A stretch of DNA of 64,000 nt, from assembly GCA_017430135.1 (NCBI GenBank), contig JAFRNM010000001.1:271242-335241 (forward strand), written 5' to 3'. The position numbers and the translations under genes are program-made. Positions 52,632 through 53,997 of the stretch are shown in pieces. Every line of letters starts with the position of its first letter. Position 1 is the stretch's first letter. The notes under the pieces are model-generated. The model saw only the letters and a list, made by a program, of their open reading frames with translations, was not told the DNA's origin and did no database searches. This DNA comes from Clostridia bacterium (GTDB lineage Bacteria > Bacillota > Clostridia > TANB77 > CAG-508).

Positions 52632-52660
52632 TTGACTATTGAAACAATCGGTGCTATAAT
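52632..52660 (+). promoter_or_regulatory. consensus sigma-A promoter (TTGACT, 17 bp spacer, TATAAT) in front of the GC-rich purA-like gene
   Basis: Hexamers read directly from the sequence. Confidence 0.5.
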
Positions 52661-52722
52661 GCCTTTGTAAGTTTTTTGTAGCTAAACCAATAATTTAATA
52701 ATTATGGACGGAGGTAAAAACT

Positions 52723-53997
52723 ATGGCTGTTAAAGTTATTATCGGAGCCTTTTGGGGCGACGAGGGCAAAGGCAAATGTGCACATTTTGAGGCATCAGAT
52801 GCCAAAGTTTCTATCCGGGCTACCGGAGGCGCAAACGCTGGGCATACGATAGTTGTAAACGACAAAAAGTATGCTATGCATCTGCTTCCTTCTTCAATCC
52901 TGAGGGAGGATGTTATGTCCATCATAGGTCCTGGCGTTGTGGTTGATCTCGAGGTGCTTTCAAACGAGATAAAGACCATTAAGGAAGCAGGAATTAATCC
53001 TAATCTTTTCATTAGCGACAGAGCTTGCATTGTTCTGCCTAGTGATAAAGAGATGGATGCATTCGTTGAGAGAATTCGCGAACATAAAGTAGGGACAACC
53101 GGAAGAGGCATAGGGCCTGCGTATGCAGCGAAGGATCACAGAATTGCAATACGTATGGGCGAACTCAAAGATAATAGGAAATCATCTACTGTAATGGATA
53201 AAATCCGTTGTAATGTGGAATTCACGTTGCTCTTTTACGGCAATCCTTATATTAAAGGGAAATATGTTGATAAAATCGAAAATTATCTGAATGAGTTTAA
53301 GACAGAAATTCTTCCTTACATCTGCGATACTCAAGCTATTATAAATAGTGCACTTGCAAATGATGAAACAATCGTTATCGAGGGTGCGCAGGCGATGTAT
53401 CTTGACAAGGATCACGGAGATTATCCGTATGTTACAAGTAGCAATCCAACGGCTGCTGGAGCATGTTGTGGTGCTGGAATTGGACCTATGTATGTTACTG
53501 ACGTAATAGGTGTTATGAAAGCATATTGCTCAAGAGTAGGTGAAGGACCTTTCCAGACTGAGCTGTTCGACGAAGTCGGAGACAGAATTCGTGACCTCGG
53601 CTACGAATACGGAACAACAACAGGCAGACCTAGGCGCTGTGGCTGGCTTGATCTTGTAAGAGCCAAAAATGCAGTTCATGTTAATAGCATTAGTGCTTGG
53701 TGTGTAAACCACATTGATACTTTGGGAAAAATAGGAATGGAGTTCGGAACAATAAAAGTTTGTACGTCGTATGACTATTGTTGCAAAGAAATTGACTATG
53801 TTCCTACAGATTCGGAGAAAGCATCTCCCATCTACAAGGAATTCGAAGGTGGTTGGGACACAACGGGTTGCAAGACCTATGAAGACCTGCCGGCTAATGC
53901 TAAGGCATATATCGAATTCATTGAAGAGTACACCGGAGTACCGGTAAAGTACATTGGTATTGGCCCTGCTGATACTGATGTAATAATCAAAGAGTAA
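52723..53997 (+). CDS. adenylosuccinate synthetase family protein (PurA-like), compositionally foreign
   Basis: GDEGKGK P-loop, GGANAGHT, TTGRGIGP, TTGRPRRCGWLD motifs. GC content about 45% against a background of about 29%. GC-richness creates spurious antisense ORFs. Confidence 0.8.
   Translation: MAVKVIIGAFWGDEGKGKCAHFEASDAKVSIRATGGANAGHTIVVNDKKYAMHLLPSSILREDVMSIIGPGVVVDLEVLSNEIKTIKEAGINPNLFISDRACIVLPSDKEMDAFVERIREHKVGTTGRGIGPAYAAKDHRIAIRMGELKDNRKSSTVMDKIRCNVEFTLLFYGNPYIKGKYVDKIENYLNEFKTEILPYICDTQAIINSALANDETIVIEGAQAMYLDKDHGDYPYVTSSNPTAAGACCGAGIGPMYVTDVIGVMKAYCSRVGEGPFQTELFDEVGDRIRDLGYEYGTTTGRPRRCGWLDLVRAKNAVHVNSISAWCVNHIDTLGKIGMEFGTIKVCTSYDYCCKEIDYVPTDSEKASPIYKEFEGGWDTTGCKTYEDLPANAKAYIEFIEEYTGVPVKYIGIGPADTDVIIKE

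Follow-up and report, generated by a model that had tools for sequence, protein, structure and literature searches.

A long-resident purA gene with a clade-wide, apparently nondecaying synonymous composition in AT-rich Clostridia

The 64,000-nucleotide (nt) stretch of Clostridia bacterium DNA analyzed here (contig JAFRNM010000001.1, positions 271,242 to 335,241; referred to below as the window) carries a gene for adenylosuccinate synthetase, purA, whose G+C content (GC) sets it apart from the genes around it. Comparison with related loci shows that purA is a long-standing resident and not a recent insertion, and the encoded protein appears, from its sequence, to be the organism's ordinary, canonical adenylosuccinate synthetase and a working enzyme. 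Enzyme identity and long residency, taken alone, are held with high confidence. The real oddity lies in its synonymous composition, which is clade-wide and apparently not decaying, along with its recombination mosaics and conserved leader; none of this amounts to a novel type of system, though it merits a proper evolutionary analysis. The statement as a whole, namely, a resident canonical PurA in a transcription unit of its own with a composition that is maintained across the clade, strikes us as evenly balanced between right and wrong.

Composition of purA in the window

The purA coding sequence (CDS) occupies positions 52723..53997 on the plus strand and encodes 424 amino acids (aa). Its GC is 0.427, with values of 0.513, 0.400, and 0.367 at the first, second, and third codon positions (GC1, GC2, and GC3) and an adenine fraction at third positions (A3) of 0.261, the lowest among 45 window genes. 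The 46 other open reading frames (ORFs) of at least 150 aa in the window have a mean GC of 0.291 (standard deviation [SD], 0.033) and a mean GC3 of 0.163 (SD, 0.037; maximum, 0.264), which places purA at z = 4.1 for GC and z = 5.5 for GC3. The initial annotation had described a gene of about 45% GC among neighbors of about 29%; the deviation stands, with a figure that was slightly high, and the gene is still an outlier in codon usage relative to the host when the calculation is windowed. None of its 20 leucine codons is TTA, compared with 59% in the host; CTG accounts for 30% of them, compared with 1%, and CCT is favored over CCA for proline.

In a sliding GC profile, values of 0.39 to 0.445 are reached only within the purA CDS. 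The promoter, the leader, and the downstream spacer are all AT-rich, so the abrupt boundaries that had been noted earlier are indeed those of the CDS itself. An assembly artifact is excluded because the identical CDS (100%) occurs in seven independently assembled metagenome contigs, with unchanged gene order in all of those that include flanking genes. The sole other third-position outlier in the window is a 204-aa ORF on the minus strand (3557-4171; GC3, 0.38; A3, 0.33), for which no Pfam or PADLOC match was found.

Residency of the gene

In the window and in three related species, purA lies within a conserved block of the order pta-ackA-ackA-trpS-(pyrB)-purA-split dpaB-xer-GH30. The relatives are represented by L008 (a 434-kb contig), L011, and L017 (a locus from a metagenome-assembled genome labeled "uncultured Clostridium sp."), and their PurA proteins are 79 to 81% identical to that of the window. 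The scan of genome contigs found one relative only, L017, and the taxonomy is left at "uncultured Clostridium sp. / Clostridia bacterium." Sister species share both the purA unit and its position, so the gene did not enter this genome recently. The earlier claim that purA had been inserted between pyrB and dpaB is therefore contradicted: the gene is at that site in all three relatives, and it is pyrB, present in the window and in L011, that is missing from L008 and L017, both of which have purA. More distant relatives (66 to 73% PurA identity) carry the gene in a second context, after serS, in the order DUF1653-serS-purA-(gatCAB or engB).

The tyrosine recombinase gene that had been noted about 800 bp downstream is present (54803..55786, minus strand, 806 bp past the purA stop codon). 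As a mobility gene it fares less well: it scores as a member of the Xer family, below the equivalog cutoffs, and is syntenic and 91 to 96% identical in the relatives. The palindromic element with a GGGACAC core that had been reported upstream of purA is likewise real (52537..52608, with arms at 52537-52564 and 52581-52608 and the core GGGACACTCTTAAAA), but it does not mark an insertion. Members of the same family lie at 7037-7104, 17794-17864, 22504-22560, 23785-23887, and 52537-52608, all just after stop codons, and degenerate copies are found at 15397, 30551-30593, and 36875-36919, giving at least six intergenic copies in the window. Arms range from 27 to 50 nt, and the core has 18 matches in the window compared with 2.1 expected. 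L008 and L017 also have a degenerate copy, located downstream of trpS. The palindrome is thus a dispersed intergenic host repeat and is not specific to purA. Like REP/BIME-like repeats (repetitive extragenic palindromic sequences and bacterial interspersed mosaic elements), these palindromes are long, near-perfect hairpins at many intergenic sites, but as a sequence family they are confined to this group of organisms. They have a run of T 5' of the stem and a run of A 3' of it and therefore do not form an intrinsic terminator in either direction.

Set against the usual marks of a genomic island, purA has the atypical composition and the sharp edges (GC3 z = 5.5, confined to the CDS). However, L008, L011, and L017 share it and its position; the repeat and the recombinase are, respectively, dispersed and conserved rather than element-specific repeats or an integrase with a tRNA target; and all of its close homologues either belong to AT-rich hosts or are AT-host-like in composition, with no composition-matched donor among them. 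A recent island in this genome that brought in a resistant or bypass paralog of PurA would fit the compositional edges, the gene's own promoter, and the recombinase and palindrome nearby. The synteny in three species, the genome-wide distribution of the palindrome, and the Xer-like recombinase all speak against it, as do a canonical active site and the lack of defense-system hits, and we consider it very improbable. The catalytic and substrate contacts are canonical, the ratio of nonsynonymous to synonymous substitution rates (dN/dS) for purA is 0.07 to 0.13 (about 0.08), which shows that the gene is under purifying selection, and no PADLOC hit supports a role in defense; the proposal of a resistant or bypass paralog can be dropped. 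The locus also carries a caution, since a sharp anomaly with its own promoter, a recombinase, and a palindrome looks like a textbook island, yet comparison shows an old syntenic resident.

Synonymous composition across the clade

The anomaly is not confined to the window. In the ten lineages for which DNA was available, the host contigs have 27 to 31% GC, and GC3 is 0.21 to 0.37 in purA compared with 0.09 to 0.17 in the neighboring genes. One codon dialect recurs among them, in which TTA is avoided, CCT is preferred to CCA, and CTG/CTC, GAG, CAG, ATC, and GGC are raised. The third-position deficit is entirely in A (-0.14 to -0.24), and the T fraction is unchanged. Deeper members of the subfamily in several unrelated AT-rich hosts (L022, L025, L026, L027, and L031/32; 43 to 51% identity) also have elevated GC3, although the anomaly is weaker there than in the ten lineages. 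In a host of 50% GC (L023/24), purA is slightly below its neighbors.

As controls, the canonical purA genes of Fusobacterium vincentii, C. difficile, and S. epidermidis (L105 to L107) have GC3 values equal to or below those of their neighbors, with GC1 and GC2 similar to those of the window purA. Because the control genes share the first- and second-position values and have ordinary third positions, the anomaly is in essence one of synonymous sites, peculiar to this subfamily in these hosts. Expression-linked codon bias is excluded as its source, since GC3 is only 0.05 to 0.16 in ribosomal-protein genes of related genomes and in pfk and presumed glycolytic genes of the window, far below the 0.367 of purA. 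A literature search on purA with horizontal gene transfer and codon usage in Clostridia returned nothing relevant.

Decay, import, or maintenance

The composition of purA could be maintained by a gene-specific pressure acting now, which would hold its synonymous sites away from the AT-rich equilibrium of the host. It might come from selection, acting on the mRNA or on codons, or from a recombination-linked bias, and the composition would then not be the fading trace of one old transfer. This gene-specific maintenance, with a pressure whose nature we infer, ranks first among the explanations considered, at slightly under an even chance; recurrent import ranks second and a single old import under decay third. 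A stronger form, in which the A-poor, G/C-rich synonymous sites are both actively held and functional across AT-rich Clostridia, probably of the rumen or gut, is rated as less likely than not. Examples of such a function would be an mRNA of the AMP branch that relies less on the supply of ATP or one that is tuned for stability or translation.

Compositionally atypical genes are commonly read, in the framework of Lawrence and Ochman, as horizontally acquired and then ameliorating toward the composition of the host. purA resembles such genes in its nonhost codons, its sharp edges, and a rate of evolution higher than that of its flanks, but differs in that the anomaly is common to at least ten lineages and to deep relatives, in that neither a donor nor signatures of mobility were found, and in that the fitted process is not moving toward host composition. 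The last point comes from a nine-taxon maximum-likelihood (ML) model of 362 synonymous third positions, which was two-state (G/C versus A/T) and nonstationary, with free branch lengths, gamma-distributed rates, and an outgroup root. In the free fit, GC3 was about 0.01 at the root and about 0.41 at equilibrium. With the equilibrium fixed at a host-like 0.08 to 0.12, the root GC3 was forced to 1.0, with a loss of 6.1 to 8.4 in twice the log likelihood (P = 0.004 to 0.013). In a parametric bootstrap under this decay null, all 22 replicates fell short of the observed statistic, and nearly all of them recovered the true equilibrium. The rejection of decay holds for four of five rootings. GC3 also climbs from the outgroups and the basal L103 toward the crown lineages. 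Two simpler approaches were set aside: a three-taxon ML model, which favored stationarity, was unreliable in gamma-rate simulations and was replaced by the nine-taxon model, and a parsimony polarization of about 2:1 in favor of AT-to-GC over GC-to-AT changes was discarded as the ratio expected from a saturated-outgroup artifact.

These results bear most directly on the possibility that an ancestor of the clade exchanged its purA for that of a donor of middle or high GC, with slow decay since. The foreign codon dialect would be expected from such an exchange, GC3 differs among lineages more than GC1 or GC2 does, and under a simple F81 model an ancestral GC at fourfold-degenerate sites of about 0.47 is feasible for decay in the trio of the window, L008, and L011. 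Nonequilibrium composition alone would, moreover, raise both dS and dN. Against this, decay fits worse under ML and needs a root with only G and C at third positions, the trend from outgroups to crown runs the other way, and the same anomaly is found in relatives at 43 to 51% identity. Nor was a donor found. No GC-matched donor was present among 23 database clusters of at least 64% identity, all of whose proteins are AT-host-like in amino acid makeup, and a scan of metagenome contigs with the clade alignment (in which the patterns FWGDEGK and I[IV]IEGAQA were overgeneral) yielded only relatives of at most 51% identity, which later served as deep relatives and controls. One ancient acquisition is therefore regarded as improbable, somewhat more so than the recurrent import considered next.

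purA is the fastest-evolving gene of the block. Its amino acid identity is about 80%, compared with 85 to 98% for its neighbors, and its dS is 1.6 to 1.9, compared with 0.4 to 1.4 (median, about 0.7); dS and dN are both about 2.5 times those of the neighbors, leaving an ordinary dN/dS of 0.07 to 0.09. The comparison of L008 with L017 is uneven: identity is mostly 97 to 100% for the flanking proteins (89.5% for one) but only 88% for PurA. In a 100-nt sliding comparison, the two purA genes diverge by 17 to 38% over nt 250 to 750 and by 0 to 5% over nt 750 to 1150, and dS exceeds 2 over codons 83 to 250 compared with 0.048 over codons 251 to 382. The divergent segment is equidistant from every sampled allele. 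purA in this pair is thus a recombination mosaic. Between the same two loci, trpS (at its 3' end) and dpaB also have smaller divergent patches. The relationships of purA also disagree with those of host genes for L014, L018, and L102.

Such patterns would be expected if purA alleles were repeatedly replaced, in whole or in part, by homologous recombination from unsampled GC-richer relatives, which would keep the gene both GC-rich and older than its flanks. The mosaic in L008 and L017, with its equidistant segment, the raised dS at an equal dN/dS, the conflict between the purA and host trees, and the two genomic sites of the gene all favor this recurrent import, and the 40-fold variation in dS inside one gene is left unexplained by one ancient acquisition. 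The sources that it calls for are not apparent, however: all ten lineages with DNA are in genomes of 27 to 31% GC, all 23 clusters have AT-host-like proteins, and GC is no higher in the imported segments than elsewhere in purA. Phage, plasmid, and viral-contig collections contained no purA relative above 45% identity. On balance, we find recurrent import unlikely. A horizontal origin of purA is possible only as an old or recurrent process of the whole clade.

Several observations weigh against gene-specific maintenance, the mechanism of which is conjectural. Among relatives at 55 to 57% identity, L020 has no anomaly and L019 has little. pyrB is not depleted of T at third positions and has no matching sparing of U, so a general "nucleotide-sparing" rule is unsupported. 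The ML model is a crude two-state one that assumes a single tree despite evident recombination, and its result depends on the root; the rejection of decay is lost with the root on the branch of the window's clade, the rooting with the worst likelihood of the five. Finally, the third-position composition of the window gene roughly fits a partly decayed import from a donor of middle GC, by estimate rather than by computation. If gene-specific maintenance is nevertheless true, purA would be an unusually clean case of one housekeeping gene resisting genome-wide AT pressure across many lineages, and it would bear on the reach of selection or recombination-linked bias over bacterial synonymous sites.

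Identity of the enzyme

All of the adenylosuccinate synthetase signatures that had been attributed to the 424-aa ORF can be read in its translation: GDEGKGK at aa 12 to 18, GGANAGHT at 35 to 42, TTGRGIGP at 125 to 132, and TTGRPRRCGWLD at 299 to 310. The protein passes both PurA equivalog models (NF002223 from NCBIfam, 471.8 bits against a cutoff of 402; TIGR00184, 438.7 bits against 395.55), and the Pfam PF00709 match spans aa 5 to 420 with 481 bits. The closest solved structure is PurA of B. anthracis (4m0g; E = 4e-104), and E. coli PurA matches at E = 3e-91. As an adenylosuccinate synthetase (EC 6.3.4.4), it would convert IMP, L-aspartate, and GTP to adenylosuccinate, GDP, and Pi. It shares with bacterial PurA (E. 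coli 1ade, B. anthracis 4m0g, TIGR00184/PF00709) the full-length architecture, the GDEGKGK P-loop, GGxNAGHT, TTGRGIGP, EGAQ, and TTGRPRRCGWLD, as well as the catalytic, IMP-binding, and aspartate-binding residues, but is only about 43 to 45% identical to canonical Firmicutes PurA.

In the alignment to E. coli PurA, D13, K16, N38, H41, T129, R143, Q224, T239, V273, T300/T301, R303, R305, and D333 (E. coli numbering) are retained. In window numbering, the IMP contacts are N38, T126, R140, Q223, and T238 (E. coli N38, T129, R143, Q224, and T239) and the aspartate contacts are V272, T299, T300, R302, and R304 (E. coli V273, T300, T301, R303, and R305). We take the roles of these contacts, of the catalytic Asp13 and His41, and of the P-loop Lys16 to be those of the E. 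coli enzyme. D13, K16, and H41 are invariant across subfamily alignments of 18 and 23 sequences. Where bacterial PurA has (T/S)-K-x-D, Ser414, and GAQG, the subfamily has N-H-x-D, Gly, and GAQA, without exception among 18 sequences that reach down to 52% identity. The first two of these marks touch the guanine-specificity element (E. coli K331-x-D333 and S414), in which D332 is kept, H330 replaces K331, and G412 replaces S414. An altered nucleotide specificity was considered on these grounds and dropped. Because solved PurAs themselves vary here, with N-S-I-D in B. anthracis and V-G-V-G-P in Cryptococcus, the substitutions are no sign of a new specificity, and use of GTP by the window protein is likely.

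It had also been suggested that the gene might encode a PurZ-type enzyme, which would make the precursor of 2-aminoadenine from dGMP. PurZ (the succino-amino-deoxyadenylate synthase of phages S-2L and phiVC8) shares the superfamily fold and the type of reaction, and its structures match the window protein at E = 1e-11 to 1e-15, a general homology. In PurZ, Ser takes the place of PurA Asp13 (S23 in S-2L), the contact made by R303 is lost, a PurZ-specific loop is inserted, and the chain is short, with deletions of the archaeal type (PMC8342488). All of these hallmarks are absent from the window protein, which keeps D13 and R302 (E. coli R303), aligns end to end with bacterial PurA, and is about 60 residues longer than PurZ. 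The PurZ model NF038379 gives 133 bits against a cutoff of 300, and the substrate pocket, where IMP and dGMP recognition would differ, has IMP and aspartate contacts that are all of the PurA type. As the initial annotation had itself remarked, partner genes are missing: no datZ, mazZ (MazG-like), HD-domain, or polymerase (dpoZ) genes are found in the Pfam content of about 10 kb on either side of purA, and the context is not that of a phage. The PurZ assignment is thus rejected, with next to no probability left to it, and the enzyme, for which single-copy status is presumed, is an ordinary one.

Transcription unit and leader

purA would form a monocistronic unit made up of an extended -10 promoter, a 16-nt leader motif, a ribosome-binding site, the CDS, and a hairpin terminator. 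The sigma-A type promoter (52632..52660, plus strand) consists of a -35 hexamer, TTGACT, at 52632-52637, which is where the initial annotation began its feature, a 17-nt spacer, and an extended -10 element, TGcTATAAT, at 52652-52660. It scores 11/12, with the upstream TG, and is the best promoter in 51400..56200. The claim of a strong promoter belonging to purA is thus upheld, with the qualification that it is near-consensus and not strictly perfect. It is kept in all relatives and in both genomic contexts. The Shine-Dalgarno sequence, GGAGG, lies at 52710..52714 (plus strand), 8 nt before the ATG, and is kept in alignments of the relatives. After the stop codon, a terminator-like hairpin of 12 pairs with a T-rich tail is found at 54037..54073 (plus strand).

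Transcription would start about 7 nt after the -10 element, at or close to a 16-nt motif, GTAAGTTTTTTGTAGC (52667..52682, plus strand), which is essentially kept (exact or 1 to 2 nt off) in 10 of 10 clade lineages and in both contexts (the window, L008, L011, L014, L017, L018, L021, and L102 to L104). The conserved string of promoter and leader shared by these lineages is TGnTATAAT-N6-GTAAGTTTTTTGTA(G/A)C. A variant, GTAA(G/A)TTTTT(T)ATGGTAAC, is found in loci at only 43 to 46% PurA identity (L025, L026, L027, and L031), and apart from these the fetched loci contain a single shorter near-match, at another place in L020. The leader has neither an Rfam match nor a consensus fold, and the idea of a riboswitch or structured leader was set aside. 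The motif may act as a protein operator at the transcription start or as part of the initial transcribed sequence, and it may represent an undescribed cis-regulatory element of purA.

Neighboring genes

pyrB (51662-52531) stands alone between trpS and purA, with no other pyr genes adjoining, and is missing from L008 and L017 at 9834-10001; the presence/absence polymorphism at this site is one of pyrB and not of purA. Downstream of purA, a dpaB-like flavoprotein gene (54170-54749) is split into ORFs of 103 and 95 aa by a 1-nt insertion (TCAcGGAAAT) that is kept in four lineages, with a second indel in L008 and L017 and no adjacent dpaA. A pseudogene is the probable interpretation, and a split gene a possible one. 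Farther upstream, two acetate kinase genes (48073-49260 and 49280-50479) lie in tandem after pta, an arrangement that is kept in the related species; in L008 their nucleotide sequences are about 70% identical.

Two tRNA genes (60987-61060 and 61222-61293) are followed by a phage-type integrase gene (61443-62738, minus strand). At the matching loci, genes for helix-turn-helix regulators follow the integrase, and L008 additionally has genes for a phage replication organizer and a topoisomerase (Toprim). The region from 60987 to 62738 is probably an integrated element that is separate from purA.

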